From: Anaerolineales bacterium
Lineage (GTDB): Bacteria; Chloroflexota; Anaerolineae; Anaerolineales; E44-bin32
Assembly: GCA_037382465.1 (NCBI GenBank)
Contig: JARRPX010000004.1
Coordinates: 76,204 to 140,203 of the forward strand
Direction: 5' to 3'
DNA: 64,000 bases
Made by a program: the position numbers and the translations under genes. Of the stretch, positions 31,546 to 51,975 are shown in pieces (within the stretch, counting starts at the first letter, position 1; each line of letters begins with the position of its first letter). Under the pieces are notes generated by a model. That model had not been told where the DNA came from and made no database searches. It was given only the letters and a program-made list of their open reading frames with translations.

Positions 31546-31631
31546 GCTGCGCAGACGCATGCAGCGACGTATTTCGAGACGGGCATTTCCTCACCGGGGA
31601 GGTGCTCGACAGCAAGTCAGAAGGTTAGGAG

Positions 31632-34382: not shown

Positions 34383-34442
34383 GAATCGAACATCAAGGAT
34401 GAGATTCGGTTAGAGATGATGGTTCGATTGTGGAGGAAGATC

Positions 34443-37310
34443 ATGAAATCACGACGCTCGACCATGTTGGTGGGATATGCGGTATGTTTGGCTCTAGTTA
34501 TTGGTTTCGTTACCCCGCTGCCGTCTCATGCAGGCGGCGGGGTGTGGATCGTCAACACGGTCGACGACCTCGACGACGGCGTCTGTGACAGCACACACTG
34601 TTCCTTGCGCGAAGCAATCAATCAGGTCAATGCCAGTCCAGGCGTTCAGTATATTTACTTCGATATCCCTGGACCGGGCCCACACGAGATCCAACTCTGC
34701 TCGATGCTGCCGGCGTTGACCGACGACGGAACGTTGATCGACGGCACCTCGGAGCCCGATTATGGGGGTACCGTACCGGTGGTCGTGATCAAGCCGGGGA
34801 TATTCAATGTGTCCGCCTATCCGGGCTGCTTTCCTCCACCAGTCGGGATCTGGATCGCCGCCAGCGACATCACCGTGACCGGCCTGAGCATCATCGGTTT
34901 TAGAAGTCCTTCCGCCTCCGTCGCCGGGGGAATCGTGACCCACATGGGCTCGAACGTCACGATCGAGCACAATTACATCGGCCTCGATCCTTCCGGAACG
35001 CCCGTCGGAAATCGAGACGGTATTTTGATGGGCTCCGAGGCGTCGCAGATCTATTCCAACCGCATCTCGGGCAACGTCAACGGCATTCACGTCTTCCGCA
35101 GCGATCACGTCATCCGTTTGAACTACATCGGAACCGATCCCACGGGCACGTTCACCAGCCCCACGCTGAAAAATTCCGTCGGCATCCTGGTGGATAATCC
35201 CTCCAGCAACGTGCAAATCGGAGGTCCAAATCCCGCCTGGATGAACCTCATTTCGGGCAACGATACCGGTGTTCAAGTCGTAACGGACGATAACTCCGTG
35301 ACCAACAACCGCATCGGCTCGGACACCAGCGGTACGCTCGGATTGGGAAACGACACCGGTATTTGGGTGACCGGCAGTGGAAACCTGATCGAGGGCAATC
35401 AGGTCAGCGACGGCCAGATCGGTGTGCTGTTGGCCGGCAGCAGCAATCAGATCTCGGGCAACTTCATCGGCACGGATTCCAGCGGCGACCTGGCGTTAGG
35501 CAACGACACCGGCGTTCACATCACCGGCAGCGATAACGTCATCGGCGGTGAGATTCCGATCATGCTCGTACCGGGCAGCACGGCTGGTAACATCATCTCC
35601 GGCAATGACACGGGCATCTTCCTCGGCCCGAATGCGCAGAATAACTACATCAAAGGCAACAAGATCGGCGCAGGCAACAGTCCGGATTCGAGTCTGCCCA
35701 ACACCACGGGCATCCTGCTCGATGGCGCCAACAACAACACGATCGGAGGCATCTATCTACCCATGGAAGCCAACTGGGTGATGCACAATATCCAGGACGG
35801 CATCCAGTTCGTCACCACCGCCAGCGATAACCTGGTTCAAAACAACTACATCGCCTGGAACGAACGGGGCATCACCGCCGGCGCTACGACCGGAACGTCG
35901 ATCCAAAACACCTTTCACTACAATAACATCTACTTTAACGATCAACTCGGTATCGACCTCTTCCCCTGGGGCGTGACCCCCAACGACCCGGGTGACGCAG
36001 ACAGCGGCGCCAATAACCTGCAAAATTTCCCCGTGATCAGTTCGGCTACGACTGCCACGGTTCAGGGAACATCCTGTCTGGGTTGCACGGTGGAAATTTT
36101 CGAAAGCGAAGAGGATCCCTCCGGATACGGAGAGGGCATATCGCCTATCGGCGAGGGGTTAACCGACACTGCCGGTAATTTCAGCATCAGTGTCGATCCG
36201 CTCTCTACCGCAGGTGTCTGTGATTACGTTACGGCCACCGCCACCGATTCGAACGGCAATACCTCCGAGTTTGCCCAGAACTTCCTTATCGGACCTTGCT
36301 TCACGTTCTCGCCGCACCTTTTACTCTTCCTGGGTGTGGTCTTCTTGGCCGGTGGTGCGGCCGCCGGTGGTAGTATCGGGCGCGGCCGCGGCAAGAGACC
36401 CGGCCTGGGGACCGCTGCTGGCGCAGCGCTGGGCGGATTGATCGGCGCCGGGCTGCTCCTGGCTACCTCCTTCATTCCGATCTTTCGCTTTCCGCCAGAA
36501 GAAGAACACGCGGTCTCCGAAGGCCTGACGGCACTTGTCCCCTCCTGCAATGCCTACCTCGATCCGCAGGCATTCGTCCCGCAAGATGGCGCAATCGTGC
36601 TCGACGAGAACTTCGATTTCGCGTGGGCCTGGTTGAATGAACCGTCGAACGGTGATTTCCGCTGGATCCTGGAATTGAATGGTCCCGACGATTCGGGTCA
36701 GCAAACAACGGAGAACTTAACGCTGCCTTTCACTGCGTTTGGTCTCGCTTTCGATGATGGGGATCGATTCTCCTGGCGCTTGAGCGGCGAACGGTTCGAC
36801 GACGCTTCTGCTGAATGGGAGGCTTTCTGCACGCCCTCCGCCTGGCTGACGTTCCAAATCGGATTGTCACCACTGCTGGCGCCGCCGTGGACACCGGATA
36901 CCCCGGAGGGACAACCCCCGACGCCCACCAGCACGCCCGAGTCTCCTGCGGGAGTCTGTCTGTACACGGCGGTACGCAACAGCAACTGCCGCGCCAGCGA
37001 CTATCCGGAGTCGCTGCAGATCGATATCCTCATGCAGGGGGAATCGGCTGAACTCCTGGCCCTGAATCCCGAGTTCACCCACGGTAAGTTCGAACTCGAT
37101 CACGGGCAGTGCTGGATCTGGCTCGGACTGCTGGAAGGTCCTGAAAATCCGTACGGCACCTGTGGCGTGCCGGTCATCGATCCAGCGCCGCCGCCGACCG
37201 CAACGCCGCCGGTCTGCACTCCGGATCTGGGCCAGGAGGACTGCGAAGCGAGCGGAGGCACCTGGTCCGGCGGCGTGACGGGCGCTGCGGGATGTGTGTG
37301 CCCGGAGTAA
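34443..37310 (+). CDS. paralog 3 of the CSLREA/beta-helix, TM hairpin, Cys-rich module family
   Basis: ATG 34443 follows GGAGGA. VCDSTHCSLREAI and LGIDLFPWGVTPNDPGDADSGANNLQNFP are present. The TM hairpin lies at about 36303-36490 with loop GRGRGKRPG. The tail is CLYTAVRNSNCR...CWIWLGLLEGP...CVCPE. Confidence 0.8.
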   Translation: MKSRRSTMLVGYAVCLALVIGFVTPLPSHAGGGVWIVNTVDDLDDGVCDSTHCSLREAINQVNASPGVQYIYFDIPGPGPHEIQLCSMLPALTDDGTLIDGTSEPDYGGTVPVVVIKPGIFNVSAYPGCFPPPVGIWIAASDITVTGLSIIGFRSPSASVAGGIVTHMGSNVTIEHNYIGLDPSGTPVGNRDGILMGSEASQIYSNRISGNVNGIHVFRSDHVIRLNYIGTDPTGTFTSPTLKNSVGILVDNPSSNVQIGGPNPAWMNLISGNDTGVQVVTDDNSVTNNRIGSDTSGTLGLGNDTGIWVTGSGNLIEGNQVSDGQIGVLLAGSSNQISGNFIGTDSSGDLALGNDTGVHITGSDNVIGGEIPIMLVPGSTAGNIISGNDTGIFLGPNAQNNYIKGNKIGAGNSPDSSLPNTTGILLDGANNNTIGGIYLPMEANWVMHNIQDGIQFVTTASDNLVQNNYIAWNERGITAGATTGTSIQNTFHYNNIYFNDQLGIDLFPWGVTPNDPGDADSGANNLQNFPVISSATTATVQGTSCLGCTVEIFESEEDPSGYGEGISPIGEGLTDTAGNFSISVDPLSTAGVCDYVTATATDSNGNTSEFAQNFLIGPCFTFSPHLLLFLGVVFLAGGAAAGGSIGRGRGKRPGLGTAAGAALGGLIGAGLLLATSFIPIFRFPPEEEHAVSEGLTALVPSCNAYLDPQAFVPQDGAIVLDENFDFAWAWLNEPSNGDFRWILELNGPDDSGQQTTENLTLPFTAFGLAFDDGDRFSWRLSGERFDDASAEWEAFCTPSAWLTFQIGLSPLLAPPWTPDTPEGQPPTPTSTPESPAGVCLYTAVRNSNCRASDYPESLQIDILMQGESAELLALNPEFTHGKFELDHGQCWIWLGLLEGPENPYGTCGVPVIDPAPPPTATPPVCTPDLGQEDCEASGGTWSGGVTGAAGCVCPE

Positions 37311-37383
37311 AACCGATTCGAGAATACTACGCCGTGAAGTTGATCGAAAATCGCAGCCAGAGGTTGATGTAAGGAGCACTTTG

Positions 37384-39984
37384 ATGAGAACTCGCAAACA
37401 CATTTCCCAGGCCTGGCTGACCCTGGGCCTGCTGGCGATGATGACCCTCGCTTTTCCATTCCCAGCAGAAGCCAGCACCTTCGTCGTCAACACGGTCGAC
37501 GATCTCGACGACGGGACCTGCGACGCCGATCACTGTTCCCTGCGCGAGGCGATCAACGCCGCCAACGCCAACCCCGGCGCGGACACGATCGCCTTCGACA
37601 TTCCCGGCGCCGGACCGCACGTGATCGAACTGTGCAGTCTGCTGCCCAAACTCACCGACGGCGGGACGACGATCGACGGCACGACGGAACCGGGTTATGC
37701 GGGGACGCCTGTCATCACGCTGACGCCATCTGCAAATCCGAGTTGTGTAAGACCGCACATCGGCCTCTGGATCCAATCCGACGGGAACGTGATCCGCGGG
37801 CTGCACACCATCGACTTCATGCACCCCACCCTGCAGCACGAAACCGCCATCTACATCGAGCGCGGCGGCGGAAACTTGATCGAGTTGAATCACATCGGCT
37901 ACCAACCCACCTGTTCGCTCTTCAACACCCAATACGGCGTTCGCATCGATACCGACGCCGGCAACCAGCGCATTCTCAAAAACGTATTCAATTGCAACGG
38001 AACGGCAATCGACATCTGGGCCGGCAGCCACCTGATCCGGGACAATCTCATCGGCGTCGATCCTTCCGGCACTACGGCCATCCTCAACGGCCTGGGTATC
38101 TACGTTTACGAAACCGCCCACGGGTCAATCATCCAGGATAACGTGGTTTCGGGCAACATCAGCGCCATGGCGGTCTATTCGGACGACAACAAGATATTGG
38201 GCAACCGCGTCGGAACCGATTGGTCGACGAACATCGCCATCCCCAATCAGGGCGGCGTCCAGGTGAACGGTGATCACAACCGCATCGGCGGCACGAACCC
38301 CGGCGAAGCGAACATCATCGCCGCCAACACCAGCATCGGCCTCGATCTGTACTGCGGCGCGGAATACAACCAGGTGTACGGCAACATCATCGGCACCAAT
38401 CTCGCCGGAACTCTCATGATGGGCAACCAGTATGGTGTCACCATCATGGGGAACACGAACATCATCGGGGGAAACGGCCCGGGAGAAGCAAACCGCATCA
38501 TCTTCAGCCAGGAAGCCGGGCTCAGCCTGTACGCATTGGCGCACAAAAACCGCGTCATCGGAAACGAGATCGCCTACGGCCGCACGCAGGGCATTCTGGG
38601 TACGAGTTCGATGGGCTTTCCCGAATCCAACACCTTCAGCCGTAACAGCATCCACCACAATCGTGCCCTGGGAATCGATCTGGAACCCGCGGGTGTGACC
38701 CTGAACGACCCTGGGGACACGGACGTCGGCCCCAACACGCTGCTCAACTTCCCCGAGCTGCAGTCCGCCAATGTGAACACGGCGGAAGGAGACGCCTGCC
38801 CGGGCTGTACCGTGGAAATCTTCATCGCCGATTCGGGTCAAGGTGCGTTCGGCGAAGGCATGACGTATGTGGGAAGCGGCAACGCCGATTCGAGTGGTCA
38901 TTTCACGATACCGCTGAGCGGGGTCGGTTTCTGCGATCCGCTCACCGCCACCGCAACAGACGGCGCGGCCAACACCTCCGAATTCGCCAAGAACATCCTG
39001 GCCAGCTGTCTCACGCTCGTCTTCCCCTGGCCCGACCTCGTCTTACTGGCGTTCATTCTTACCGGCGCCCTGGGCAATGGACGTCGCAGCCGGGGCAAAT
39101 CGCCCGGCCGATTTGCCGCCGCCGGCGGTGCTGCTGGCGCAGTGTTCGGCATCGCCCTGCTGACCCTGGGCAGTACGCTTCCCAACGTGCACCTGGAACT
39201 GCTCCCTCCCAAAGAGGAATCGAAGATTGAACCACTATGCAGCGAGCTGCTTCTACCGGATGGGTACGCGCCGCCGGCCGGAACCGTTTTCCAAACCAGC
39301 GAGGACCCGCTGCTTTCCTGGACGCCAGGCCCCGGCGTCGCCGACGGGATCGTCTGGCAGGTAGAGTTAAGCGCACCGGACGGCTCGGGTGTGAATCAAA
39401 CGACGCAGGAGACAAGCATCGCCTTCAGCAGCTTCGCGCTCCCCGCTCAACCGGGGTTTTACCGCTGGCGTATCACCGCCGGAGAGGGCAACGCCCCAGG
39501 AATACTGGGGAAAGCGTTATGTTCACCGACTTCGTGGATGCCGTTTTCCCTCGAAGGGCCGCAGCGTGAGGAAACGCCTTCATCGACGCCGACCTCGACC
39601 CCCACGCCAACTCCCACAACGGAGTTATCCGCGTGTGTCTTCATCGCGCTGCAAAATGCCAACTGCCGGGAGAGCGACTACGTCGAATCGGACCAGATTG
39701 CCATTCTCATGCAGGGCGAGAGCGCCGGGTTGATCGCCTTGAATCCCGAATTTACGCACGGAGAGTTCGAGGTCGATCAGCATCAATGCTGGATCTGGCT
39801 CGGGTTGCTGGACGGCCCGGATAACCCGTACGGCACGTGCGGCGTTCCGGTCGTCGATCCGCCTCCGCCGCCGACGGCAACGCCGCCGGTCTGCACCCCG
39901 GATCTCGGCCAGGAAGACTGCGAAGCAAGCGGGGGCACTTGGTCCGGCGGCGTGACGGGCGCTGCGGCATGCATATGCCCGTAA
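37384..39984 (+). CDS. paralog 4 of the CSLREA/beta-helix, TM hairpin, Cys-rich module family
   Basis: ATG 37384 follows AAGGAG. TCDADHCSLREAI and LGIDLEPAGVTLNDPGDTDVGPNTLLNFP are present. The TM hairpin lies at about 39019-39180 with loop GNGRRSRGKSPG. The tail is CVFIALQNANCR...CWIWLGLLDGP...CICP. Confidence 0.8.
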   Translation: MRTRKHISQAWLTLGLLAMMTLAFPFPAEASTFVVNTVDDLDDGTCDADHCSLREAINAANANPGADTIAFDIPGAGPHVIELCSLLPKLTDGGTTIDGTTEPGYAGTPVITLTPSANPSCVRPHIGLWIQSDGNVIRGLHTIDFMHPTLQHETAIYIERGGGNLIELNHIGYQPTCSLFNTQYGVRIDTDAGNQRILKNVFNCNGTAIDIWAGSHLIRDNLIGVDPSGTTAILNGLGIYVYETAHGSIIQDNVVSGNISAMAVYSDDNKILGNRVGTDWSTNIAIPNQGGVQVNGDHNRIGGTNPGEANIIAANTSIGLDLYCGAEYNQVYGNIIGTNLAGTLMMGNQYGVTIMGNTNIIGGNGPGEANRIIFSQEAGLSLYALAHKNRVIGNEIAYGRTQGILGTSSMGFPESNTFSRNSIHHNRALGIDLEPAGVTLNDPGDTDVGPNTLLNFPELQSANVNTAEGDACPGCTVEIFIADSGQGAFGEGMTYVGSGNADSSGHFTIPLSGVGFCDPLTATATDGAANTSEFAKNILASCLTLVFPWPDLVLLAFILTGALGNGRRSRGKSPGRFAAAGGAAGAVFGIALLTLGSTLPNVHLELLPPKEESKIEPLCSELLLPDGYAPPAGTVFQTSEDPLLSWTPGPGVADGIVWQVELSAPDGSGVNQTTQETSIAFSSFALPAQPGFYRWRITAGEGNAPGILGKALCSPTSWMPFSLEGPQREETPSSTPTSTPTPTPTTELSACVFIALQNANCRESDYVESDQIAILMQGESAGLIALNPEFTHGEFEVDQHQCWIWLGLLDGPDNPYGTCGVPVVDPPPPPTATPPVCTPDLGQEDCEASGGTWSGGVTGAAACICP

Positions 39985-40153: not shown

Positions 40154-41299
40154 ATGAGCCTCTGGATTCGAACAAAAACAACAACTCTCGTCCTGATCCT
40201 TGCAGCAAGCCTGATCCTTTCGGCATGTCATTTCCCCGGTATGGGCGCCACCCCGGATCTGTTCGCCACGTCCGCAGCGCAAACCGTATCCGCCCGGCTG
40301 ACGCAGCCGGTAGAACCAGGTATAGACGGGACGACAGAGCCCGAGCCGCCCGTGATCGCCACGACTGAAGCGCCACCGACGGAAGAACCGCCTACCCCAA
40401 CGATTACGCTCACGCCTACGATCACGCAGACCACCATCCCCTGCGATCGCGCCGGCTTCGTTTCGGACGTCACCATCCCGGACGGGGAAGAACTGCAACC
40501 GAACGAGAGCTTCACCAAAACCTGGCGGTTGAAAAATAACGGCTCGTGTACCTGGACCTCCAGCTACGCGCTCATCTTCGACAGCGGCGATTCGATGAGC
40601 GGACCTGCATCCCAACAACTCACCAGTGGAACCGTGGCGCCTGGCGCCACGATGGACGTCTCCGTCGATCTGACCGCGCCAGGTTCACCGGGAACGTACA
40701 AGGGTTACTGGAAACTGCGCAACGGATCGGGTGTGAATTTCGGCATCGGAACGAGCGGCACGAATCCCTTCTGGGTCGAAATCGAGGTCGTTCCCAACAC
40801 CACCACGGTCACCCTGCCGATGAAAGAAATGGAAAGCGGACAGGTGGAATCCACCGGCTCAACCGGATTTGGAAGGTATGTGGGTGACAGCCACACGAAT
40901 ACATCCACACAAGCATTCGTCAGCTTCGATATCAGTGCGATACCGTCGGACGCCATCATCACCAAGGTTACGACGAAGGTCAGCAGCTACAATAAAACCG
41001 GAGATCCCTTTGGTGACCTGGGCGCATTATTCATCTTCAAGGATGATTACGGCAGCCTGGACGCAAGCGACTACGTCGGAAGTGTTCCGGGGAGCGGCCG
41101 GCTGATGTCCTGGTCTTCGACATCGAGCCTGGGAACCGAAACCGCCGACAACGATATGGTCAATGCACTGCAGAGCAAAGTGGGCAGCAGTCGCTTTAAA
41201 GTGCGATTCCAATTCGCCGATGACACAAATGGTGATCACGGCGCAGACTATCTGGAACTGGTCACGATTGTGATCAAGGTAACTTACTACACACCATAA
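40154..41299 (+). CDS. lipoprotein with NBR1-type Ig-like (FW-like) domain and a beta-rich C-terminal domain (paralog A)
   Basis: Lipobox is LILSAC, followed by a PT/E linker. The NBR1-Ig pattern is CDRAGFVSDVTIPDGEELQPNESFTKTWRLKNNGSCTWTSSYALIFDSGD...GTYKGYWKLRNGSGVNFG. The C-terminus reads ...LFIFKDDYGSLDASD...KVTYYTP. Confidence 0.8.
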   Translation: MSLWIRTKTTTLVLILAASLILSACHFPGMGATPDLFATSAAQTVSARLTQPVEPGIDGTTEPEPPVIATTEAPPTEEPPTPTITLTPTITQTTIPCDRAGFVSDVTIPDGEELQPNESFTKTWRLKNNGSCTWTSSYALIFDSGDSMSGPASQQLTSGTVAPGATMDVSVDLTAPGSPGTYKGYWKLRNGSGVNFGIGTSGTNPFWVEIEVVPNTTTVTLPMKEMESGQVESTGSTGFGRYVGDSHTNTSTQAFVSFDISAIPSDAIITKVTTKVSSYNKTGDPFGDLGALFIFKDDYGSLDASDYVGSVPGSGRLMSWSSTSSLGTETADNDMVNALQSKVGSSRFKVRFQFADDTNGDHGADYLELVTIVIKVTYYTP

Positions 41300-41320
41300 T
41301 TACCTGGCGTCAGGATGCTG

Positions 41321-41354
41321 ATCCCCGTCGAACTGATTCTCGGCGGGGATTTTC
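41321..41354 (+). terminator. rho-independent terminator after lipoprotein gene 1
   Basis: ATCCCCGTCG-N10-CGGCGGGGAT (9 of 10 bp paired), followed by TTTT. Confidence 0.6.
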
Positions 41355-41400
41355 CATGCTGCTCAAGAAAATTCTGAGCGCCAGATTAAGCGAACGCCAC

Positions 41401-41429
41401 TTGTCAAAATTGGCGGCTCACAGTAGCAT
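41401..41429 (+). promoter_or_regulatory. sigma-70-like promoter of lipoprotein gene 2 (TTGTCA-N17-TAGCAT)
   Basis: The -35 is at 41401-41406 and the -10 at 41424-41429. It is a paralogous copy of 40041-40069. Confidence 0.5.
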
Positions 41430-41513
41430 CCTGATACTGATTGCCGGCTTTGAATGATCATATTCTTAGCGGGTACACGGAGAAGAAGATATCAAAACGA
41501 AGGAGACACCAAG

Positions 41514-42659
41514 ATGAGCCTTCTGACTCGGATAAAAACTTCAACACTCGTCTTTATTCTTGCGGCCGGTTTGATTCTTTCGGCCTGTAATTTCCCCGGC
41601 ATGGGCGCTACCCCGGATCTGTTCGCCACATCGGCCGCACAGACGGTGTCCGCCCGTCTCACCCAACCGGTGGAACCCGGCAGCGTGGAAACGACAGAAC
41701 CTCCGCCGCCTGTGATCGCCACGACCGAAGCGCCGCCGACGGAGGAGCCCCCCACGCCGACCAAAACGCTGACACCCACGGTCACGAATACCACCATCCC
41801 CTGCGACCGCGCCGCCTTCGTTACGGACGTCACCGTACCCGACGGGGAGGAATTTGAACCGAACGAGAACTTCACCAAGACCTGGCGCCTGAAGAACGAT
41901 GGCTCCTGCACCTGGACCTCCAGCTATGCACTCATTTTCGACAGCGGTGATTCGATGGGAGGGCCCGCTTCCAAACAGCTCACCAGTGGAACCGTGGCGC
42001 CTGGTGCGACCATGGACGTCTCCGTCGATCTGACCGCGCCGAGCTCTCCGGGCACCTACAAAGGCTACTGGAAATTGCGCAACGGATCGGGAGTGAACTT
42101 CGGCATCGGCGCAGGAGGCACAAATCCCTTCTGGGTCGAAATCAAGGTCGTTCCCAACACGACAACGAAAACCGTTCCCCTCGTCGTCGGCGAAAGTGGG
42201 CAGGTGACCAAAGGCGGCTTCGTATTCGGAAACAAAATCGCCGGAGACAACGTAAGCAACGATTCCTCCCAGGCCTTCCTGAGTTTCAATATCACCGGAA
42301 TCCCGGCGGACGCCGTCATCACGGAAGTCGTGATCGACCTCGGCGATTTCACCGTGAGCGGAACGCCGTTCTCGGCGCTCGGGGCGCTCTTCATCTTCAA
42401 GGACGATTACGGCAGCCTGGACGCCTCCGATTTCGTCAGCAGCACACCCTCTTCCGGCCGGCTTATTTCCTGGAGCTCAAACTCGAGCCTGGGAAATGCC
42501 GTCTCGGATGCCGACATGGTCAATGCCCTCCAGACCAAGGTGGGGTCGAGTCGTTTCAAGCTGCGTCTGCAGTTCAACAAACAGACCGATAATGACAATG
42601 GAAACGATTACCTGACTTTCAACACGGTAATCCTCAAAGTCACCTACTACACGCCCTGA
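41514..42659 (+). CDS. lipoprotein with NBR1-type Ig-like domain and beta-rich C-terminal domain (paralog B)
   Basis: The ATG at 41514 follows GAAGGAGACACCAAG, the same leader as paralog A. The signal/lipobox is MSLLTRIKTSTLVFILAAGLILSAC. The N-terminal half is about 90% identical to paralog A by eye and the C-terminal half about 60%. Confidence 0.8.
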   Translation: MSLLTRIKTSTLVFILAAGLILSACNFPGMGATPDLFATSAAQTVSARLTQPVEPGSVETTEPPPPVIATTEAPPTEEPPTPTKTLTPTVTNTTIPCDRAAFVTDVTVPDGEEFEPNENFTKTWRLKNDGSCTWTSSYALIFDSGDSMGGPASKQLTSGTVAPGATMDVSVDLTAPSSPGTYKGYWKLRNGSGVNFGIGAGGTNPFWVEIKVVPNTTTKTVPLVVGESGQVTKGGFVFGNKIAGDNVSNDSSQAFLSFNITGIPADAVITEVVIDLGDFTVSGTPFSALGALFIFKDDYGSLDASDFVSSTPSSGRLISWSSNSSLGNAVSDADMVNALQTKVGSSRFKLRLQFNKQTDNDNGNDYLTFNTVILKVTYYTP

Positions 42660-42685
42660 CGCTGCGCAGCGGATAGATGTGAAAA

Positions 42686-42720
42686 ATCCCCGCGAAGTTC
42701 GAAGACTCGCGGGGATTTTC
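42686..42720 (+). terminator. rho-independent terminator after lipoprotein gene 2
   Basis: Perfect 10-bp stem ATCCCCGCGA / TCGCGGGGAT with an 11-nt loop, followed by TTTTC. Confidence 0.75.
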
Positions 42721-42810
42721 GCTCTTTATCGAGGTATATTTTGTGCAGATGCTTGCCGCATTCCAGCGGTTGAATTGGCAGATTCAAAGCACGCGTGATA
42801 GATTCAAGCT

Positions 42811-44487
42811 ATGGTTGCGAATGTACTCGTTGTTGAAGAGATGGAAGAATTCGGGTCTTTGATCCGCAATGCGCTGGAAGAAACCGGGCGGTATCAGGTG
42901 TCGCTGGCGATGAACGCAGACGAGGCGATCGAACTCGGAGATCGGGAGAATATCCACTTGCTGATTATCGACTTCGATCTCTCCGAAGCCGATGCGCCGG
43001 CCTGTATTCAACGCATCCAATCCACCAATCCGGACATGGCCATCATCGCCATTCCGCCCAACAACGACCCGCACGATCCTGCATTGTCGAATCTTCCAAT
43101 CCGCGGCATGCTGACGAAGCCCTTTTACCTTCCTGAACTCAACGAAATCGTCTCCGCAGCGATTGATCTGCCGACGCAGCCTGTGGCAACGGAACAGATC
43201 CAAGAATCCCTCCCACAGGAAGCCCCCTTCATCGAGGTCATGGACACGCCGGCACCCTGGGCGGACGACGCGGATCGAACCACGCAGTACCTCGCCAGGA
43301 TATGTGACGAAACGTCGGCCGAAGCGGTGATCCTCTTGCACCACGGCCGGCAATGGGCACAAACGGGTGGGATAACTGCGGATCAAGCCCAGGGACTCGC
43401 AGAAAAGATTGCTGAAATCGGAGTCGGCTCGGGCGCCCGCGGAGCCATTACCACTCTGACTCGCCTGCCGGGCACACAACGGGACTGCATCCTCTATGCC
43501 AACGGTTTGATGCCGAATTGGATTTTGGCGCTGATCTATCCCTCCGGCACGTCCTTCGGGATCATCCGCCGCCAGGCCAGACACGCCGCAGATAGACTCA
43601 AATACACCGATCTGTCCGGCCACGAGGAAGAACTGCCTCCTATAAAGGTATCCGCACCCGATACCGCACCGATTTCCACTCGAGCCGAAGAAGACATATC
43701 GTTCGATGAAATCTTCGATGCGGAACCGGAGACTCAAGAGATGCCGTTTTTCGAAGATCTCGACCTGCCTTCCATAAAGAAATCCGCACCCGATACCGCA
43801 CCAGTTTCCGCTCGAGACGAAGAAGAGACATCGTTCGACGAAATCTTCGATGCGGAACCGGAGGCCCAAGAGATGCCGTTTTTCGACGATCTCGACCTGC
43901 CCCCTCCGGAACCCGACGAAGCACCCGCAGAAATCGAAGAGCACCGGATTGAAGAAGCAGACACCGTCGCAGCGATCCCTGGGGATTGGGTGCCCGACAA
44001 ACCCAAACCCGAATCCCACCTGCCCTTTCTCGACGAGGACGCCTTCCCGGATTCGGACTCCACCCCGGATGCACAGGAACCAATCCCGCTGCCCGACGCG
44101 GAGTACTACCTTCCCGTAACTGCGGTGCTTGTACCCCGATTCCCGGAGCACCGCCTGACGGGCGCTCTTGCGGAAAATCTGCAGCAATGGGTGATTCGTC
44201 TCTGCCTGGCGTGGGATTGGCGTGCGGATGAAGTGTCGATCGAACCCGATTATCTCTGTCTGACGATGAGCATTTCCCAGGAGACTGCGCCATCGAATGC
44301 GGTATTCCGGCTTCGCGACGATCTTTCACAGCGAATACTCAGCGCGTTTCCGGAATTTGTGGACGACCTGCCCTCTCGACGATTTTGGGCTCGCAGCTAC
44401 CTGCTGATCACCGGTGGATCACCGCCGACGGAACGGCTGCATGCCTTCGTCGAAGCCACCCGCAAGGCCCAGGGCATCGAAATCTGA
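42811..44487 (+). CDS. multidomain protein: receiver (REC), Roadblock/LC7-like, 2 x 44-aa acidic repeats, catalytically dead IS200/IS605 TnpA-like (Y1/HUH fold) domain
   Basis: The REC domain reads VLVVEEMEE...LLIIDFDL...LTKPF. The Roadblock-like pattern is TTQYLARICDETSAEAVILLHHGRQW...NWILALIYPSGTSFGIIRRQARHAADRL. The C-terminal 44104-44487 is collinear with TnpA_IS200 (VLVPRFPEHRLTG / EPDYLCLT / SQRILSAFPEF / FWARSYLLITGG / AFVEATRKAQ). Confidence 0.8.
   Translation: MVANVLVVEEMEEFGSLIRNALEETGRYQVSLAMNADEAIELGDRENIHLLIIDFDLSEADAPACIQRIQSTNPDMAIIAIPPNNDPHDPALSNLPIRGMLTKPFYLPELNEIVSAAIDLPTQPVATEQIQESLPQEAPFIEVMDTPAPWADDADRTTQYLARICDETSAEAVILLHHGRQWAQTGGITADQAQGLAEKIAEIGVGSGARGAITTLTRLPGTQRDCILYANGLMPNWILALIYPSGTSFGIIRRQARHAADRLKYTDLSGHEEELPPIKVSAPDTAPISTRAEEDISFDEIFDAEPETQEMPFFEDLDLPSIKKSAPDTAPVSARDEEETSFDEIFDAEPEAQEMPFFDDLDLPPPEPDEAPAEIEEHRIEEADTVAAIPGDWVPDKPKPESHLPFLDEDAFPDSDSTPDAQEPIPLPDAEYYLPVTAVLVPRFPEHRLTGALAENLQQWVIRLCLAWDWRADEVSIEPDYLCLTMSISQETAPSNAVFRLRDDLSQRILSAFPEFVDDLPSRRFWARSYLLITGGSPPTERLHAFVEATRKAQGIEI
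43633..43896 (+). repeat. 2 x 132-bp in-frame tandem repeat inside the REC/TnpA-like gene
   Basis: Unit 1 (43633-43764) encodes LPPIKVSAPDTAPISTRAEEDISFDEIFDAEPETQEMPFFEDLD. Unit 2 (43765-43896) encodes LPSIKKSAPDTAPVSARDEEETSFDEIFDAEPEAQEMPFFDDLD. A third unit begins (CTGCCCCCTCC) but diverges. Confidence 0.9.
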
Positions 44488-44517
44488 CTCCCTGTTTCCC
44501 CCACGAATTGCGCCTGG

Positions 44518-44526
44518 TGCTACAAT
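44518..44526 (+). promoter_or_regulatory. possible extended -10 promoter (TGC-TACAAT) for polA
   Basis: TGCTACAAT lies 37 bp upstream of the polA ATG. No convincing -35 is present. Confidence 0.3.
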
Positions 44527-44563
44527 TTAATACCTCACCGATTATTCCAAGGGAGCGTCCAGG

Positions 44564-47341
44564 ATGACTACCCAACCTCGCTTATTTCTCATCGATGGCC
44601 ATGCACTCGCATACCGCACCTACTTTGCACTGACGCGTGCAGGCGATCCCTCCCGCTGGATAACCAAATCCGGCGAGCCGACGGCCGGGACGTACGGCTT
44701 CGTCTCCGTGCTGCTCTCGCTCCTCGAGCGTGAGAAACCGGAGTATCTCGCCGTCTCCTTCGATACCGGCCGCACGTTCCGCGACGATCTGTTTGCTGAG
44801 TACAAGGCCACCCGAGAGAAGATGCCCGACGATCTTCGCCTGCAGATCAAACGCATCCGTGAGATTATCGCGGCCTTCGGAATCCCCATTCTCGAAGCCG
44901 AAGGATACGAAGCCGATGACGTGCTCGGCACTGTGGCCCGACAAGCGTCAGCGCAGGGCGTCCATACCATCATCGTCACCGGTGACCGTGATCTCCTGCA
45001 GCTTGCCACCGACGACGTGACCATTCAATTATCCGGCCAGAAGCTTTCCGAAGCGACCGACTACGGGCCGGAACAGGTTCGCGAACGCTACGATCTCGAT
45101 CCCGGGCAGCTGGTCGACCTGAAAGCCCTCGTCGGTGACAGCAGCGACAACATCCCGGGCGTGCGCGGCGTGGGTGAGAAAACGGCCACATCGCTGCTCC
45201 AAAAATACCATACCCTGGATAACATCTTCGCCAACCTGGCGGAGGTTCAGTCCCGTTTCCGTAACAAATTGGAGCAAGGCCGCGATGATGCCTATCTGAG
45301 CAAGAAGTTGGGCCAAATCGAAACGGACGTGCCCATCGAGTTCAATCTCGAGTCATGCCGCGCGCAAGCCTACAACCGGGATGAAATCGTCGACATTTTT
45401 CGGGAACTCGAATTCCGCACTTTACTCAACCGCATCCAAATCGACGAAGAAAGCGGCGAACACCAGATGAGTCTTTTCGTCAGCGATCAGCAGGGCGGTA
45501 GCGCAGGATCCCGGACCGTACACATCGTCGACGATGCTGAAAAACTCAAAAATCTGATCCAGCGCCTCGAAGCGGCTGAACGCGTTGCTTTCGACGTCGA
45601 AACGACCAGCACAGATGAGATGCAGGCCGATCTCGTCGGAATATCGCTCGCCACCCAACCCGAAGAGGGGTATTACATTCCCGTCGGGCACGTCGCTGCC
45701 CAAGCCGGAGCGCAACTGCCGTTGGAAACGGTCATCGAAGCCCTGCGTGGTCCCCTGACCGATTCCGGCAAACCCAAGGTGGGACACAATCTGAAGTACG
45801 ATTACACCCTTCTCGCTCGCAGCGGGCTTCGTGCTTCGCCGCTCGCATTCGATACCATGCTGGCCGAGTGGCTCTGCGATCCCGCTTCCCGCAGCCTGGG
45901 GCTGAAAAATCTGGCCTGGATCCGCCTGGGCGTGGAGATGACGGAGATCGAAACGTTAATCGGCCGTGGAAAGAATCAACGTTCCATGGCCGAGGTGCCC
46001 ATTGCAGAAGTCGCGCCGTACGCCGCTGCGGACGCCGAGATCTGTCTGCGCCTCCTGCCGATCCTCGAGAAGGAACTAAAAGAGAAGAACCAGACGAAAT
46101 TGTTCCAAGAGCTTGAAATGCCGTTGATTCCCATCCTGGCACAAATGGAGATGACGGGGATCAGCCTGGACATCGAATTCTTACGTCAGCTTTCCAGAGA
46201 ACTGCAGGAGCGTATGGCGAAGATCGAAACCAAGATCTTCGAAGAAGCCGGCAGTCAATTCAACGTCAATTCGACGCAGCAGTTGTCGGCTGTGCTTTTC
46301 GAGGATTTGAAGCTCGCCCCGCCCGATCGCGCCCGCCGCACGGCTTCCGGTCATTACTCTACCGCCGCCTCGGTGCTTGAAGAACTGCGTGAAGCACATC
46401 CAATCGTAGATGACATACTCGCCTACCGCGAGATCGCAAAGATAAAATCCACCTACGCCGACGCCCTGCCCCAGGAAGTCAATCCACGAACGGGCCGCGT
46501 ACACACGTCCTTCAATCAAACCGGTTCGGTGACCGGCCGATTGGCATCATCGAACCCCAATTTGCAAAACATACCGGTGCGCACCGAAATCGGTCGTGAA
46601 ATCCGCCGGGCCTTTATCGCAGACAGCGGCCACACTTTGCTCAGTGTGGACTACTCTCAAATCGAACTGCGCATCGTCGCCCACATATCCGAAGATGAAG
46701 CGATGCTGCAAGCCTTCCGAGACGATCAAGACATCCACAGCGCCACCGCAGCGGCGATCTTTGGCGTCAAACCTGCAGACGTAACGCCGAATCTGCGCAG
46801 ACGGGCGAAAGCGATCAATTTTGGCCTGATCTACGGGATGAGTCCCTTCGGGCTGACCCGTTCCACGGATTTGACCCTCGCGGAAGCCGAAAACTTCGTC
46901 AAGGCATATTTCGATCGATTCCCTGGCGTGCAGCGATACCTGGAGCAGATTCGACAACAGGCCTCTCAGGTCGGCTACGTTTCCACACTGCTGGGTCGAC
47001 GGCGATACTTCCCGCAGTTGGTCGCGGGGTCCGCCGTTTCAGAACAGGCTCGCGCCCGGGCGATGCGCGAGGCGATCAACGCCCCGATCCAGGGCACGGC
47101 CTCCGACATCATCAAAATCGCCATGATACGCCTCCCGCAAGCACTGGCCGAGGAGAAATCAAAAGCCGACATGCTGATCCAGGTTCACGACGAATTGGTT
47201 CTCGAATGTCCGCAAAGCGAACTGACCAAAACCACCGCCGTCGTTCAGAAGATCATGCAAGGCGCATTCGATCTTCGTGTGCCATTGAAGACCGATGCCA
47301 AAGCAGGCGTGACCTGGGCGAGCATGAAACCCGTAGATTGA
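44564..47341 (+). CDS. polA: DNA polymerase I
   Basis: 925 aa. It has a 5'-3' exonuclease N-terminus (LFLIDGHALAYRTYFAL), a 3'-5' exonuclease-like domain, and polymerase motifs DYSQIELRI, RRRAKAINFGLIYGMS and QVHDELV. Confidence 0.97.
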   Translation: MTTQPRLFLIDGHALAYRTYFALTRAGDPSRWITKSGEPTAGTYGFVSVLLSLLEREKPEYLAVSFDTGRTFRDDLFAEYKATREKMPDDLRLQIKRIREIIAAFGIPILEAEGYEADDVLGTVARQASAQGVHTIIVTGDRDLLQLATDDVTIQLSGQKLSEATDYGPEQVRERYDLDPGQLVDLKALVGDSSDNIPGVRGVGEKTATSLLQKYHTLDNIFANLAEVQSRFRNKLEQGRDDAYLSKKLGQIETDVPIEFNLESCRAQAYNRDEIVDIFRELEFRTLLNRIQIDEESGEHQMSLFVSDQQGGSAGSRTVHIVDDAEKLKNLIQRLEAAERVAFDVETTSTDEMQADLVGISLATQPEEGYYIPVGHVAAQAGAQLPLETVIEALRGPLTDSGKPKVGHNLKYDYTLLARSGLRASPLAFDTMLAEWLCDPASRSLGLKNLAWIRLGVEMTEIETLIGRGKNQRSMAEVPIAEVAPYAAADAEICLRLLPILEKELKEKNQTKLFQELEMPLIPILAQMEMTGISLDIEFLRQLSRELQERMAKIETKIFEEAGSQFNVNSTQQLSAVLFEDLKLAPPDRARRTASGHYSTAASVLEELREAHPIVDDILAYREIAKIKSTYADALPQEVNPRTGRVHTSFNQTGSVTGRLASSNPNLQNIPVRTEIGREIRRAFIADSGHTLLSVDYSQIELRIVAHISEDEAMLQAFRDDQDIHSATAAAIFGVKPADVTPNLRRRAKAINFGLIYGMSPFGLTRSTDLTLAEAENFVKAYFDRFPGVQRYLEQIRQQASQVGYVSTLLGRRRYFPQLVAGSAVSEQARARAMREAINAPIQGTASDIIKIAMIRLPQALAEEKSKADMLIQVHDELVLECPQSELTKTTAVVQKIMQGAFDLRVPLKTDAKAGVTWASMKPVD

Positions 47342-47462: not shown

Positions 47463-49808
47463 ATGACTGACCAGTCAAACCTTTTTGAAGAATCGATGCG
47501 CCTTGGGCACTCTGCTGCCTGGGACCTCAAGTGGGACCGGGCAATCGAGTTCTACCGCAAGGCATTGGTGCAGCTGCCGGAAGATCCTGGTGCGCTCACC
47601 AGTTTGGGGTTGGCGCTGCTGGAGACCGAGCAGTACAAGGAAGCGCTTTCGGTCTACCATAAGGCCGCGAAGGTCACCCCCAACGACCCGATCCCGCTCG
47701 AACGCTGCGCAGAGATCTTCGAACGCCTGGGGCAAATTAGCGACGCCGTCATGCAGCGCAATGCTGCGGCGCAGCGCTACCTGGCCCGAAAGGACGCTCA
47801 GAAGGCCATCGATAACTGGATTCACATCGCACGCCTGACACCGGACGATTTGCACACGCGCTCCACCTTGGCCCTCACTTACGAACGGACCGGAAATGCC
47901 CGCCAGGCGGTGTACGAATACATCAACGTGGCGTCCATATTGCAAAGAGCGGGGAACACCGAGCGGGCCATAGAAGCCGTACAGCGTGCTTTACGCCTCG
48001 TCCCCGGGCATCCTGAGGCGGGTAAAGCCTTGCGTGCGCTCAAGGTCGGCGAAACCTTGGCGCCGCCCTCGCAGCCGCGCGGCGCGACCGCGCCGCTGCG
48101 GATGGCCAAGGTCCAGGAATACATCAACGCGGAAGCCGTGGAGACGGAAGTAGACGACGATGATGTGGCAGATCCCGAAGTCGCGGCGCAGCGCGATGCA
48201 CTCAAGATTTTGGCCGGTCTGCTGTTCGATGAACCAAGTGGGGACGATGAAGATGATCTCGATCAGGCGGACACTTCATCCGGACTTTCCGCCCTCGCTG
48301 GAGGGTTGAGTCTTTCGGGCCGTAAATCCGTCGGGCAACCCCAGATGTATCGTTATCTCGGGCAGGCGATCGATCTGCAAACACGTGGGAAAGACAAAGA
48401 AGCCATCAAGGAATACGAACGTGCGATTAAAGCTGGATTGGACCATCGGGCGGCGCACTACAACGTAGGTATTCTGCTCAAGAAGGCCGAAGATTACCAG
48501 GCCGCTAAAAAGCATCTTGCCGCCGCGTTGGGTTACGAAGATTTAGATCTGGGCACCAACCTCGCCCTCGGTCGGATCGCGCGCACGGAGAAAGACCTGC
48601 CCGAAGCTGCCAGGTACCTGCTGCAAGCCCTGCGAATCGCCGATTCGCTGTCCGTCGATTCCAGTCAATCGGCGTCCCTGAATCAGTTTTACGACGCCAT
48701 GCTCGTTTCCCAGGAAGAAGGCAACGAAGAAGAACTGGCTCGTATCGTTGAGAGCACGCTCAACTTTCTCAGCGGTCCGGATTGGATGCGTCGGCTTCGT
48801 CAGGCACGCATGCAATTGGAAAGCGAGGGTGCGGAAAGCTCGGCCGTCGTTCCGATCGCCGAGATGCTCGCCGTGGGCGGAACGGACCGCGTGCTTCAAT
48901 CCCTGGGCCGAATCGACGACCTTCTCGTCCGTGAATTGTTCGCCGCGGCCATGGAAGAAGCGATGCTGACGCTCGATCACGCACCTTCCTATCTTGCGCT
49001 GCACATGCGCATGGCTGAAATCATGATCCGCAGCGGCCGTCGGGAAGCCGGCTTGGAAAAAATGGGGATCGTCGCCGAAACGCATCGCGTGCGTGGTGAA
49101 ATTCCCCAGGCCGCAGATGTCTACGCCAAGATCATCCGCGAGGCCCCGGTCAACATCCCGGCCAGAAACCGACTGATCGAACTCTTCGTCCAGCAAGATC
49201 GACACAAAGAGGCGCTGGAACACTACATCGATCTGGCGGACATCTATATGCAAATGGCAGAACTGGACTCGGCCAGAAAAGCCCTGGCATCAGCGCTCAG
49301 CCTGGCGCAGGACAGTTCTGTCGACCGAGAGTGGTCCGTAAAGATATTACGGGAAATGGGCGACATCGACCTTTCTCGTCTGGATTGGCGGCGTGCATTG
49401 CGCGTCTATTCCCAGATCCGCACCCTGGATCCAAGCGACGAGAAGGCGCGTACGAACGTGATCGATCTGAATTTACGTCTCGCGCAGGATGAACAAGCCG
49501 CTCAGGAATTGGATGGTTATCTCGAGTATCTCGTTCAGCACGATCGCGGTCAAAACGCCTTGACTTTCATTGAAGACCTGGCGCGAGAGCACTCCGGGAA
49601 AAGCATTCTGCACGAGCGTCTTGCCGAAGCTTACCTCGCCGCCGGCCGCAAAGCCGATGCAATCGCACAATTCGATGCACTGGGTGAGATCCTCCTCGAC
49701 GCCGGGCGTAACGGCGAAGCAATTCGAATCATCGAAAGAATCATCACTCTCCAACCCCCCGACATCGAAGGGTATCAAGAATTGCTCACCAATTTGAGGA
49801 ACGCCTGA
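47463..49808 (+). CDS. TPR-repeat protein
   Basis: 781 aa of degenerate 34-aa TPR-like helical repeats (for example AIEFYRKALVQLPEDPGALTSLGLALLETEQYKEALSVYHKAAKVTPNDP). Confidence 0.8.
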   Translation: MTDQSNLFEESMRLGHSAAWDLKWDRAIEFYRKALVQLPEDPGALTSLGLALLETEQYKEALSVYHKAAKVTPNDPIPLERCAEIFERLGQISDAVMQRNAAAQRYLARKDAQKAIDNWIHIARLTPDDLHTRSTLALTYERTGNARQAVYEYINVASILQRAGNTERAIEAVQRALRLVPGHPEAGKALRALKVGETLAPPSQPRGATAPLRMAKVQEYINAEAVETEVDDDDVADPEVAAQRDALKILAGLLFDEPSGDDEDDLDQADTSSGLSALAGGLSLSGRKSVGQPQMYRYLGQAIDLQTRGKDKEAIKEYERAIKAGLDHRAAHYNVGILLKKAEDYQAAKKHLAAALGYEDLDLGTNLALGRIARTEKDLPEAARYLLQALRIADSLSVDSSQSASLNQFYDAMLVSQEEGNEEELARIVESTLNFLSGPDWMRRLRQARMQLESEGAESSAVVPIAEMLAVGGTDRVLQSLGRIDDLLVRELFAAAMEEAMLTLDHAPSYLALHMRMAEIMIRSGRREAGLEKMGIVAETHRVRGEIPQAADVYAKIIREAPVNIPARNRLIELFVQQDRHKEALEHYIDLADIYMQMAELDSARKALASALSLAQDSSVDREWSVKILREMGDIDLSRLDWRRALRVYSQIRTLDPSDEKARTNVIDLNLRLAQDEQAAQELDGYLEYLVQHDRGQNALTFIEDLAREHSGKSILHERLAEAYLAAGRKADAIAQFDALGEILLDAGRNGEAIRIIERIITLQPPDIEGYQELLTNLRNA

Positions 49809-49843: not shown

Positions 49844-50719
49844 GTGACGGATCTCATAAACGAGCTGGAATTATTCATACTTCGCTTCAACTGGCTGAGC
49901 TTGATCGATATCTTGCTCGTCACCGTGGTGATGTATTTGCTCCTGCGGCTCATGCGGGGCACGCGAGCGGAAGTCTTGCTGCGCGGGGTGATCCTGCTCA
50001 CCCTCGGCATTGCTTTGATCACACTGGTGCTCGACCTTCCAGCTTTCTCGTGGCTGCTGCAAACGTCTTTGCCGGCGCTGATCGTTGCGATTCCGGTGAT
50101 CTTTGCCCCCGAAATCCGCCGTGCGCTGGAACAATTGGGAAGAGCAGGAAATTTCTTCATTCTGGGAACACAACCCAGCGCAATCGAAAACATGATCGAC
50201 ATCGTCTGTGGCACTGCCCAGCGGCTTGCGGAACGCAGATTTGGTGCATTGATCGTTATTGAAAGAGAAGTGCGGCTGGATGAATACGTCGAAACCGGAA
50301 TTTCCCTCGACGCGCAATTGACGCCCGAACTTCTGCTGCAGCTCTTTTTTCACAACACCCCACTGCACGACGGCGCAGTGATCATCCGGAACGGCAGACT
50401 CGTCGCAGCAGCATGTGTGATGCCGCTCTCCTCCAGCGGCACACTTTCGAGATCGCCGGCGCACCACTTCGGCCTGCGCCATCGTGCTGCGCTGGGCATC
50501 AGCGAGGTCAGCGACTCGGTGTCCGTCGTCGTGTCGGAAGAGACGGGATCAATCTCGATCACCCACAACGGACGCATGATCCGCCGCCTGGACCAGAATC
50601 GCCTGCGCAACATTCTGACCGCCTTTTTCCAACCGCGTACGACCAGCCGGCTCCCCGAGTGGCTCGACCAATTGCTTTTGCGGTTCCAACATGCAAGCAG
50701 CGAAGCCCAGGGAGACTGA
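49844..50719 (+). CDS. cdaA: diadenylate cyclase (membrane-anchored, DisA_N/DAC domain)
   Basis: Three N-terminal TM helices are followed by GALIVIERE, TPLHDGAVII and GLRHRAALGISEVSDSVSVVVSEETGSISI. Confidence 0.9.
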   Translation: MTDLINELELFILRFNWLSLIDILLVTVVMYLLLRLMRGTRAEVLLRGVILLTLGIALITLVLDLPAFSWLLQTSLPALIVAIPVIFAPEIRRALEQLGRAGNFFILGTQPSAIENMIDIVCGTAQRLAERRFGALIVIEREVRLDEYVETGISLDAQLTPELLLQLFFHNTPLHDGAVIIRNGRLVAAACVMPLSSSGTLSRSPAHHFGLRHRAALGISEVSDSVSVVVSEETGSISITHNGRMIRRLDQNRLRNILTAFFQPRTTSRLPEWLDQLLLRFQHASSEAQGD

Positions 50720-50727
50720 AGCCTTCC

Positions 50728-51975
50728 ATGTTGACTTGGTTCAGGGAGAACTTCGGAACCCTTCTGCTTTCGCTGATCCTGGCTGTCATGGTCTGGTTCA
50801 TTGCCGTCAATGAGGATGATCCCCGCGTAGAACACCCGCTTTCCAATCCGGTCGACATTCAATTTACCGGCGTACCGGATGGCTTTCTGATCACCAACCC
50901 GTCCGCAACGCAAGCCAGCGTTACGCTCCTGACGACCCAATCGATCTGGAACGAACTGTCGGATGCGGACATCCGCGTGGTGGCGGATATGTCAGGGTTG
51001 GAGCAAGGCACGTACAAAGTACCGCTCCAGGCAAAGCTCACGCGACGATTGGTCAAAGTAACTGAGATCGCACCGGAATCCGTGATCGTCACCCTGGAAG
51101 TAAAAGAAACGAAAACACTGCCGGTCCAGGTCGTGACTCTCGGCAGTCCGGCGTTGAGCTATACCGCCGAAGACCCGGTCGCCGAGCCTCGAAACGCAAC
51201 CATCGTCGGACCCGCCTCCGCGGTAGCGCGCGTGGTCGAATTACGAGCTGCACTCAACCTGACCAACCGCCAGGAAAGCCTGGATCAACTGGTGACTCTC
51301 AACGCCATGGACGAAAACGGGCTCGAGGTAAACGGCATCCAGATCTCCCCCGAAACCGTGCGCGTGCAGATCCAGATCACGCAACAGCCCAACTACCGCC
51401 TCGTCTCCGTCATACCCAAGATCGAGGGGCAGGACGAATTGGTGGAAGCCGGCTACCTGGTAACCGAGGTCACCGTTACGCCTCAATGGGTGACGATCTT
51501 TTCCTCCGATCCCCAGGCATTCGAAGACCTGCCGGGCTACATCGAAACCGTTCCACTGGACTTGTCCGGCGCCGTGGACGATGTCGAGCAGCAACTGCAG
51601 CTCGATCTCCCGCCCGGCTTTTCCCTGGCGTTTGAGCAGAGCGTGACCGTCAAAGTCGACATCGAACCCCGCACAAACTCGATCACCATCAACCGTCCGT
51701 TGGACGTGCGCGGGGTCGGTACCGACCTCTACGCCCTGCTCTCTCCCGATGAAGTCTCCATCATTCTCACGGGTCCGGCGGCGCTGCTCAACACGCTGCA
51801 GCCGGAAGAGATCATCGTGGTCGTCGATGTAACCGGTTTAGAACCCGGAACGTACCAGATCACGCCGCAAATCATCGGGATTCCCGAGATTATCGACGCC
51901 AGCGGCCCCATCCCGGCCACCATTCAAGTCACGATCAGCGCCACTCCGCTGCCGACCCCCACCTCAGAATCATGA
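50728..51975 (+). CDS. cdaR: YbbR-domain protein, CdaA regulator-like
   Basis: The start at ATG 50728 (MLTWFRENFGTLLLSLILAVMVWFIAVNED) gives an N-terminal TM followed by repeated YbbR-like beta modules. Its position right after cdaA is canonical. The track ORF start at 50413 overlaps cdaA and is rejected. Confidence 0.8.
   Translation: MLTWFRENFGTLLLSLILAVMVWFIAVNEDDPRVEHPLSNPVDIQFTGVPDGFLITNPSATQASVTLLTTQSIWNELSDADIRVVADMSGLEQGTYKVPLQAKLTRRLVKVTEIAPESVIVTLEVKETKTLPVQVVTLGSPALSYTAEDPVAEPRNATIVGPASAVARVVELRAALNLTNRQESLDQLVTLNAMDENGLEVNGIQISPETVRVQIQITQQPNYRLVSVIPKIEGQDELVEAGYLVTEVTVTPQWVTIFSSDPQAFEDLPGYIETVPLDLSGAVDDVEQQLQLDLPPGFSLAFEQSVTVKVDIEPRTNSITINRPLDVRGVGTDLYALLSPDEVSIILTGPAALLNTLQPEEIIVVVDVTGLEPGTYQITPQIIGIPEIIDASGPIPATIQVTISATPLPTPTSES

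Follow-up and report, generated by a model that had tools for sequence, protein, structure and literature searches.

Transposases taken over by their hosts are familiar from eukaryotes; among bacteria, the RAYT (TnpA_REP) family is the main domesticated example of the Y1 HUH type, and its members are still active enzymes. RAYTs are relatives of the IS200 transposase TnpA that are retained by the host in single copy, keep both the HUH motif and the catalytic tyrosine, and are flanked by REP sequences. A gene that resembles them as a host-retained, single-copy relative of IS200 TnpA lies at positions 42811-44487 of the forward strand of a 64,000-nucleotide stretch of DNA from an Anaerolineales bacterium (GenBank assembly GCA_037382465.1, contig JARRPX010000004.1, positions 76,204 to 140,203), referred to here, at its full length, as the window. 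The gene encodes a 558-residue protein in which a receiver (REC) domain, a Roadblock/LC7 domain and an acidic linker precede a catalytically dead TnpA domain of the sort found in IS200/IS605 insertion sequences (IS). Unlike in RAYTs, both motifs are lost, and the window contains no REP-like or palindromic repeat family, its repeats being paralogous genes or an internal 132-bp duplication. The gene is an Anaerolineae host gene and not a mobile element, and of all segments of its protein the dead Y1 domain is the most strongly constrained.

The closest described proteins are the IS200/IS605 transposases (PDB 2ec2, 2f4f, ISDra2 2xm3 and IS608 2vjv), which belong to subclass 1.1 of Quentin et al. 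(2018). The C-terminal domain shares their fold and domain length, a PxxR-type first beta strand, an FW(A)xxY strand and the C-terminal helix. It differs from them in that the HUH motif, the tyrosine and the metal-ligand glutamine are all replaced and in that about 430 residues of other domains stand in front. Quentin et al. admitted a sequence only if it had both motifs (PMC6006769), so the REC-Roadblock-Y1 family falls outside their classification. Full-text literature searches found no description of such a fusion, and the identical public protein (NCBI MEJ2549539.1) is titled "MAG: response regulator [Anaerolineales bacterium]". What is new here is a domesticated transposase of a known sort that sits in a response-regulator-like protein with an unusual output.

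The fold of the C-terminal domain (residues 431-558; 44101-44484, forward strand) is recovered by Pfam, by profile search and by structure comparison. Pfam Y1_Tnp (PF01797) matches residues 437-548 at 38.9 bits against a cut-off of 23, and a profile of the domain retrieves IS200-family TnpA structures, including 2ec2 (E=3.7e-16), 2f4f (3e-14), ISDra2 (4e-14) and IS608 (6e-8). Foldseek places an AlphaFold2 model of the domain on IS200-family TnpA with target template-modelling (TM) scores of 0.75-0.82. No RAYT structure appears among the PDB matches of either the profile or Foldseek; the E. coli RAYT is absent from them, so the Y1 domain is nearer to IS200 TnpA.

The active site is gone. The strand that carries the HUH motif in active enzymes (pdHvHl in ISDra2, pdHiHl in 2ec2) reads D-Y-L-C-L here (44248-44262, forward strand; residues 480-484), and a profile alignment sets the two HUH histidines of ISDra2 TnpA opposite Y481 and C483. 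The former Y-x-x-x-Q (44446-44460, forward strand) has Phe546 (44446-44448) aligned to the nucleophile Tyr132 of ISDra2 and Thr550 aligned to its metal ligand Gln136. Because the 558-residue protein contains no H-x-H anywhere and its last helix has no tyrosine, an alignment shift that would rebuild either half of the site is ruled out. The open reading frame (ORF), peptide strings and coordinates given in the original prediction, which was made from the sequence alone, are all correct, as is its call of a Y1_Tnp fold.

How far this loss extends can be judged from relatives; residue counts, conservation values and locus comparisons throughout refer to the best 80 of 390 matching stretches from a one-genome-per-species scan, one per Chloroflexota assembly and all different. 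The first HUH position, 481, is tyrosine in 77 of the 80 orthologues, and the second, 483, is glutamine in 63 and cysteine in 10. None of the 80 has an HUH at its proper position, and the six H-x-H strings that do occur sit elsewhere in the domain. Threonine replaces the metal-ligand glutamine at position 550 in 85% of them. Position 546 is divided between tyrosine (44 species) and phenylalanine (36 species), which makes the loss of the nucleophile clade-specific. The metal site is thus lost family-wide, and the tyrosine is lost in some clades, that of the window included; the original claim of catalytic loss holds in full for this protein and, as regards the tyrosine, does not extend to the whole family. 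Other residues of the domain do not vary at all across the 80 species (P442, F525-W526-A527, R551 and Q554), and R443, H447 and R471 are conserved too.

The architecture is widespread and intact. A word-indexed search returns 39 clusters with REC plus Y1, all from Anaerolineales or Chloroflexi metagenome bins, and an exhaustive profile search with a threshold of E<=1e-30 returns 1,092 cluster representatives (50% identity), the best 150 of which align over essentially the full profile. At 79 of 80 loci the ORF is uninterrupted over its full length, and conservation is highest in Y1 and Roadblock. In the set of the six closest sequences, the ratio of nonsynonymous to synonymous substitution (dN/dS) is 0.089 for Y1, 0.19 for Roadblock, 0.20 for REC and 0.27 for the linker. 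An architecture fixed in about 1,090 clusters, with the lowest dN/dS in the Y1 segment, bears out the earlier proposal of a domesticated HUH host domain. A search with the Y1 profile for stand-alone versions gave short fragments only, and a search with the Roadblock profile for Roadblock-only versions gave just three short unannotated proteins. Longer relatives differ by longer linkers, not by other architectures.

The remaining parts of the protein agree with the four-part layout first proposed, as judged from Pfam, profiles, AlphaFold2 models and Foldseek. An AlphaFold2 model built with 36 homologues shows confident folds at residues 1-120, about 148-265 and about 430-555, and disorder at residues 121-146 and 268-430.

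The middle domain (residues ~148-266; 43252-43608, forward strand) has the alpha-beta-beta-alpha-beta-beta-beta-alpha order of a Roadblock/LC7 domain and is MglB-like. Its profile matches Myxococcus MglB (6h5b) over nearly the whole length at E=4.5e-5. Modelled separately, the domain reaches a predicted local distance difference test score (pLDDT) of 84.6 and a predicted TM score of 0.80, and Foldseek ranks MglB first, followed by LAMTOR/MP1-p14 and a Streptomyces Roadblock protein (probability 1.0, TM ~0.64, E ~5e-6). The Roadblock assignment, at first a matter of secondary-structure pattern, is borne out by these matches. Pfam Robl_LC7 matches none of 19 family members at E<=10. Residues Y229, G186, L239 and R253 are invariant in the 80 species. 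Foldseek also aligns REC and Roadblock together, over about 320-330 columns, to the G-domain and Roadblock of RagA/RagC, at low TM and with an inter-domain geometry that is not confident; the modelled alignment hints at an analogous layout of switch plus platform.

The REC domain (residues 5-114; 42823-43152, forward strand) is recognized by Pfam Response_reg (PF00072, 43.6 bits, cut-off 30.2), by alignment to PhoP (1mvo) and by Foldseek matches to REC structures at a root-mean-square deviation of about 2 A. The phospho-acceptor D54 is kept in 79 of 80 species, K103 in 73 and P104 in all. The Mg2+-binding acidic pair of PhoP, D10-D11, aligns to E9-E10; this pair is E-E in the window's clade and T-P in most orthologues. 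In the same alignment, Pro82 occupies the conserved Thr/Ser position and Met100 that of the aromatic switch. REC is the least conserved of the folded domains, its score falls below the Pfam cut-off in distant members, and no kinase is conserved among the upstream neighbours of 73 loci. The fold, D54 and K103 thus fit the plausible phospho-acceptor REC originally described, but the domain is less canonical than claimed, and the case for phosphorylation control is weak: D54 and K103-P104 speak for it, and Pro82, Met100, a mostly absent acidic pair and the want of a conserved kinase neighbour speak against it. On these residues, phosphorylation is possible in the window's clade and unlikely as a general mode of control across the family. 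Atypical or pseudo-receiver response regulators are similar in their REC fold, their retained Asp and Lys-Pro and their orphan genes with no adjacent kinase; they differ in that here neither the Thr/Ser nor the aromatic switch residue is kept, most of the family lacks the acidic pair, and the output is a Roadblock domain and a dead transposase fold, not a helix-turn-helix or an enzyme. Within the window, a gene for a hybrid REC-GAF-kinase is found 10 kb downstream (54285-55919).

The linker (residues 267-430; 43609-44100, forward strand) is acidic, proline-rich and disordered (pLDDT <50), with a net charge of -43 against a family median of -14.5. It contains the 132-bp (44-residue) duplication as two tandem copies (43633-43901, forward strand; Tandem Repeats Finder score 440, 89% match), which doubles a family-conserved acidic motif, EMPFF[ED]DLDLP. 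Relatives carry one, two or three units, giving proteins of 514, 558 or 602 residues; two clusters that differ in this way are 91% and 93% identical, with the repeat length difference counted. A short linear motif, E-M-P-F-F-D-D-L-D-L-P-P-P-E-P, is identified from the alignment at 43870-43914 (forward strand), and the prolines of its L-P-P-P-[DE]-P segment (P364, P366 and P368) are conserved at 88-98% in the 80 species. Such motifs in disordered tails are typical partner-binding sites. The obvious candidate partner would be a co-conserved TPR protein encoded nearby.

That TPR protein belongs to a conserved trio. Directly downstream of the REC-Y1 gene lies polA, encoding full-length DNA polymerase I (44564-47341, forward strand), followed by the gene for the 781-residue TPR protein (47463-49808, forward strand), both assigned by Pfam. 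The original prediction took the nearness of polA as a hint of a replication- or repair-linked role and put the gap at 77 bp; the gap is 76 nt (44488-44563), and the association is far stronger than hinted. A downstream flank of at least 1.5 kb is available at 75 loci; at 69 of them a co-directional polA begins within 400 nt (median gap 111 nt; fourteen gaps of 3-28 nt), and at three more polA lies 0.9-2 kb off, with an inserted gene between in one case. At 60 of 64 loci polA is in turn followed by the TPR gene. Upstream neighbours vary, the commonest occurring at just 23 of 73 loci. The trio is kept down to about 25% identity of the REC-Y1 protein, which points to a functional link rather than inertia.

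The 76-nt spacer before polA (forward strand) contains an extended -10 element, TGCTACAAT, at 44518-44526 and a Shine-Dalgarno sequence, AAGGGAG. It holds no terminator or stable fold, folding no better than shuffled sequences (z=+0.6), and no Rfam family matches within the window. A block of about 50 nt (44514-44563) that includes the extended -10, the polA 5' untranslated region and AAGGGAG is invariant in relatives L001-L005, a degree of conservation beyond the usual needs of a promoter by itself. A GTGCTACAAT core of this block recurs in the more distant L006-L010, L013 and L021.

On the other side, the transcription unit is bounded by the terminator hairpin of the upstream gene (42683-42719, forward strand), a 13-nt perfect inverted repeat (AAAATCCCCGCGA / TCGCGGGGATTTT) followed by a T-rich tail, whose stem is invariant and whose loop varies in L001-L005. 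This hairpin is the 5' boundary of the unit and not an IS end. A consensus scan finds a promoter-like TTGGCA-18-TAGATT with a TG extension (42775-42804, forward strand), and the block 42775-42811 is invariant in L001-L005 despite synonymous divergence of up to about 1.6 (saturated). Because this promoter-like site ends 6 nt before the ATG of the REC-Y1 gene, which no Shine-Dalgarno sequence precedes, the mRNA is probably leaderless, with a transcription start predicted from the sequence.

A different hairpin follows the REC-Y1 gene in one branch of the family. Its 7-bp core (CGCAGAG...CTCTGCG) is conserved in sequence, its loops diverge widely and it has a T-run; its distance from the stop codon is 8-99 nt. 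In 939 kb of locus DNA the exact site occurs 14 times, always in this post-gene position. The hairpin is restricted to loci with Tyr546 (L023, L025, L027, L030, L036, L040, L042, L046, L051, L053, L054, L057, L061 and L062, and further L067-L069, L071, L073, L076, L078, L080 and others) and is absent from the window's clade. In some copies both partners of a base pair have changed in a compensatory way (C-G to T-A, A-T to G-C), G.T wobbles are seen on the sense strand, and the core is conserved although the proteins are just 47-57% identical. It was considered as a TnpA ligand and set aside: it resembles a Rho-independent terminator, occurs in the Tyr546 clade only and is missing from the window's clade, and it is not used as evidence here.

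Taken together, the domains and the locus are best read as a non-catalytic dimeric adaptor whose dead TnpA fold may still recognize single-stranded, hairpin or fork-like DNA and which may act with DNA polymerase I; we put this reading at roughly 45%. An IS200/IS605 TnpA domain has been captured, has lost its metal ligands and, in this clade, the nucleophilic tyrosine as well, and is kept as the non-catalytic module that ends a signalling-type protein. The Roadblock domain, and probably the TnpA-like domain, would hold the protein as a dimer. The dead fold would recognize its ancestral substrates (single-stranded, hairpin or fork-like DNA of the lagging-strand template) without cutting them, while the acidic linker motifs, duplicated here, would tether partners, for which the TPR protein and DNA polymerase I are the best candidates. 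The atypical receiver might modulate the adaptor, in most relatives probably without phosphorylation. Such a protein would be an adaptor or regulator of DNA polymerase I-linked processing, for example gap filling, Okazaki fragment maturation or repair.

The nucleic-acid role proposed for the dead fold draws on two precedents. Active IS608 TnpA is found at forks that have stalled, has the beta clamp (DnaN) as an interaction partner and also binds fork-like DNA on the lagging-strand template (PMC5027513). The Y132F trapping mutant of ISDra2 TnpA has been crystallized on hairpin DNA (PDB 2xo6), and the phenylalanine at the nucleophile position of the present protein is the same change.

Several observations weigh against this reading. 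Neither a hairpin nor a repeated palindrome suitable as a ligand occurs in the window, and the Y1 domain is mildly acidic here, with a net charge of -4 against a family median of +4. In three loci polA is missing nearby. At many orthologous loci a terminator separates the gene from polA, which has its own conserved promoter, so the two are often separate transcription units and their linkage need not mean physical interaction. A bolder form of the adaptor proposal, in which the protein is an Anaerolineae-wide non-cutting sensor of single-stranded or hairpin DNA, mounted on a receiver-Roadblock switch and guiding or regulating DNA polymerase I on the lagging strand together with its TPR partner, is doubtful.

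The protein might instead be a transcriptional or post-transcriptional regulator, the dead TnpA domain serving as an output domain that binds DNA or an RNA hairpin at its own locus and controls polA expression, for example through read-through or promoter activity. The C-terminal position of the domain is the usual place of response-regulator output domains, and the gene is closely followed by the roughly 50-nt invariant block that contains the polA promoter. The conserved hairpin of the Tyr546 clade, with its 14 of 14 exact sites past the stop codon and some compensatory changes, would also suit such a role, but the window's clade has no such hairpin and its spacer does not fold, while other clades have unrelated terminators or gaps of just 3-28 nt. 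The pattern is that expected of an ordinary terminator inherited in one clade. Moreover, TnpA folds are not known to bind double-stranded DNA sequence-specifically, and this form of regulation is considered unlikely.

A signalling scaffold that binds no nucleic acid is also improbable. Here REC and Roadblock would form a switch and a dimerization platform for a small GTPase or another NTPase, as in MglB or RomR, the TnpA fold would be a protein-protein or dimerization module, and the adjacency of polA would be incidental. The Roadblock domain is MglB-like and as conserved as Y1, the combination of REC with a Pro/Glu-rich disordered region is reminiscent of RomR-type polarity regulators (PMC4316618), and the Foldseek alignment to the Rag GTPases spans G-domain and Roadblock alike. 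However, the 64-kb window encodes no small Ras-like GTPase such as MglA, Der being the sole GTPase found, and there is no GTPase among the conserved upstream neighbours. Unlike MglB, the Roadblock domain here is one of several domains in its protein and goes unseen by Pfam Robl_LC7. Other neighbours change as identity falls to about 25%, but the polA-TPR linkage remains, and coincidence is a poor account of it.

That the gene is an IS200/IS605-type element, active now or until recently, or else a RAYT, in either case with an unusual active site, is very improbable, and this reading is refuted for the present protein. The appeal of the reading lies in the Pfam Y1_Tnp score, in the tyrosine kept by 44 of 80 orthologues, and in public annotation: fragments of the family (proteins P0185-P0304) are labelled "IS200/IS605 family transposase, partial" or "RayT" in public records, and the Joint Genome Institute (JGI) uses "RayT". 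Against it, all three metal ligands are replaced, the HUH histidines throughout the family, and this protein has phenylalanine for tyrosine. The NCBIfam IS200 equivalog (NF033573) scores 36.9 bits, below its cut-off of 55. As the original prediction held, the locus is not an IS: the window contains a single copy of the gene, no tnpB or other transposase domain among its other ORFs and no flanking hairpin pair, the sole nearby hairpin being the terminator of the upstream gene. The 80 genomes contribute one locus each, the gene holds the same position across them, and the base composition of the gene is close to that of the surrounding DNA. Two Y1 fragments on long contigs that might pass for stand-alone copies (L081 3813-5447, L082 3783-5504) are frameshift-split genes at the usual locus, where polA is split too.

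A decaying fusion or pseudogene remnant, as the lost catalytic residues and the long, poorly conserved linker of variable repeat number might suggest, is refuted by the intact ORFs, the essentially whole-profile matches of the best 150 of about 1,090 clusters, dN/dS values of 0.09-0.27 in every segment, and the invariant residues and promoter block.

The window has several further features. A 467-residue antisense ORF that overlaps the REC-Y1 gene (42784-44187, reverse strand) has no Pfam match and contains 10-18 in-frame stops in relatives L001 and L003-L005, and it is rejected as a chance ORF. No PADLOC model matches, and membership of a defence system finds no support there. Beyond the TPR gene, at 49844-51975, the ORFs for cdaA (diadenylate cyclase) and a YbbR-domain (cdaR-like) protein overlap by about 300 nt as listed, and the latter probably starts further downstream than listed; cdaA is found after the TPR gene in closer relatives only. 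Upstream lie four tandem paralogues of about 880-960 residues with shared internal repeats and weak bacterial Ig (Big_6) matches (28900-39984) and, after them, a tandem pair of paralogues that carry N_BRCA1_IG domains (40154-42659). A 15-nt tandem repeat of about four copies, Ala/Glu/Pro-rich in translation, is located near the start of a periplasmic-binding-protein gene (4222-4301).

A Y1 HUH domain in which every catalytic residue is lost and which is nevertheless the most constrained part of a protein found in some thousand clusters is a clear case of the non-enzymatic reuse of a transposase fold. Mislabelled fragments of the REC-Y1 host gene inflate mobile-element counts in Chloroflexota metagenomes. 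The fixed adjacency to polA offers a testable lead to a DNA polymerase I-associated factor in a large, poorly studied phylum. Should the protein prove to be a sensor that guides DNA polymerase I, it would add a new accessory factor to bacterial replication or repair, derived from a fork-targeting transposase.

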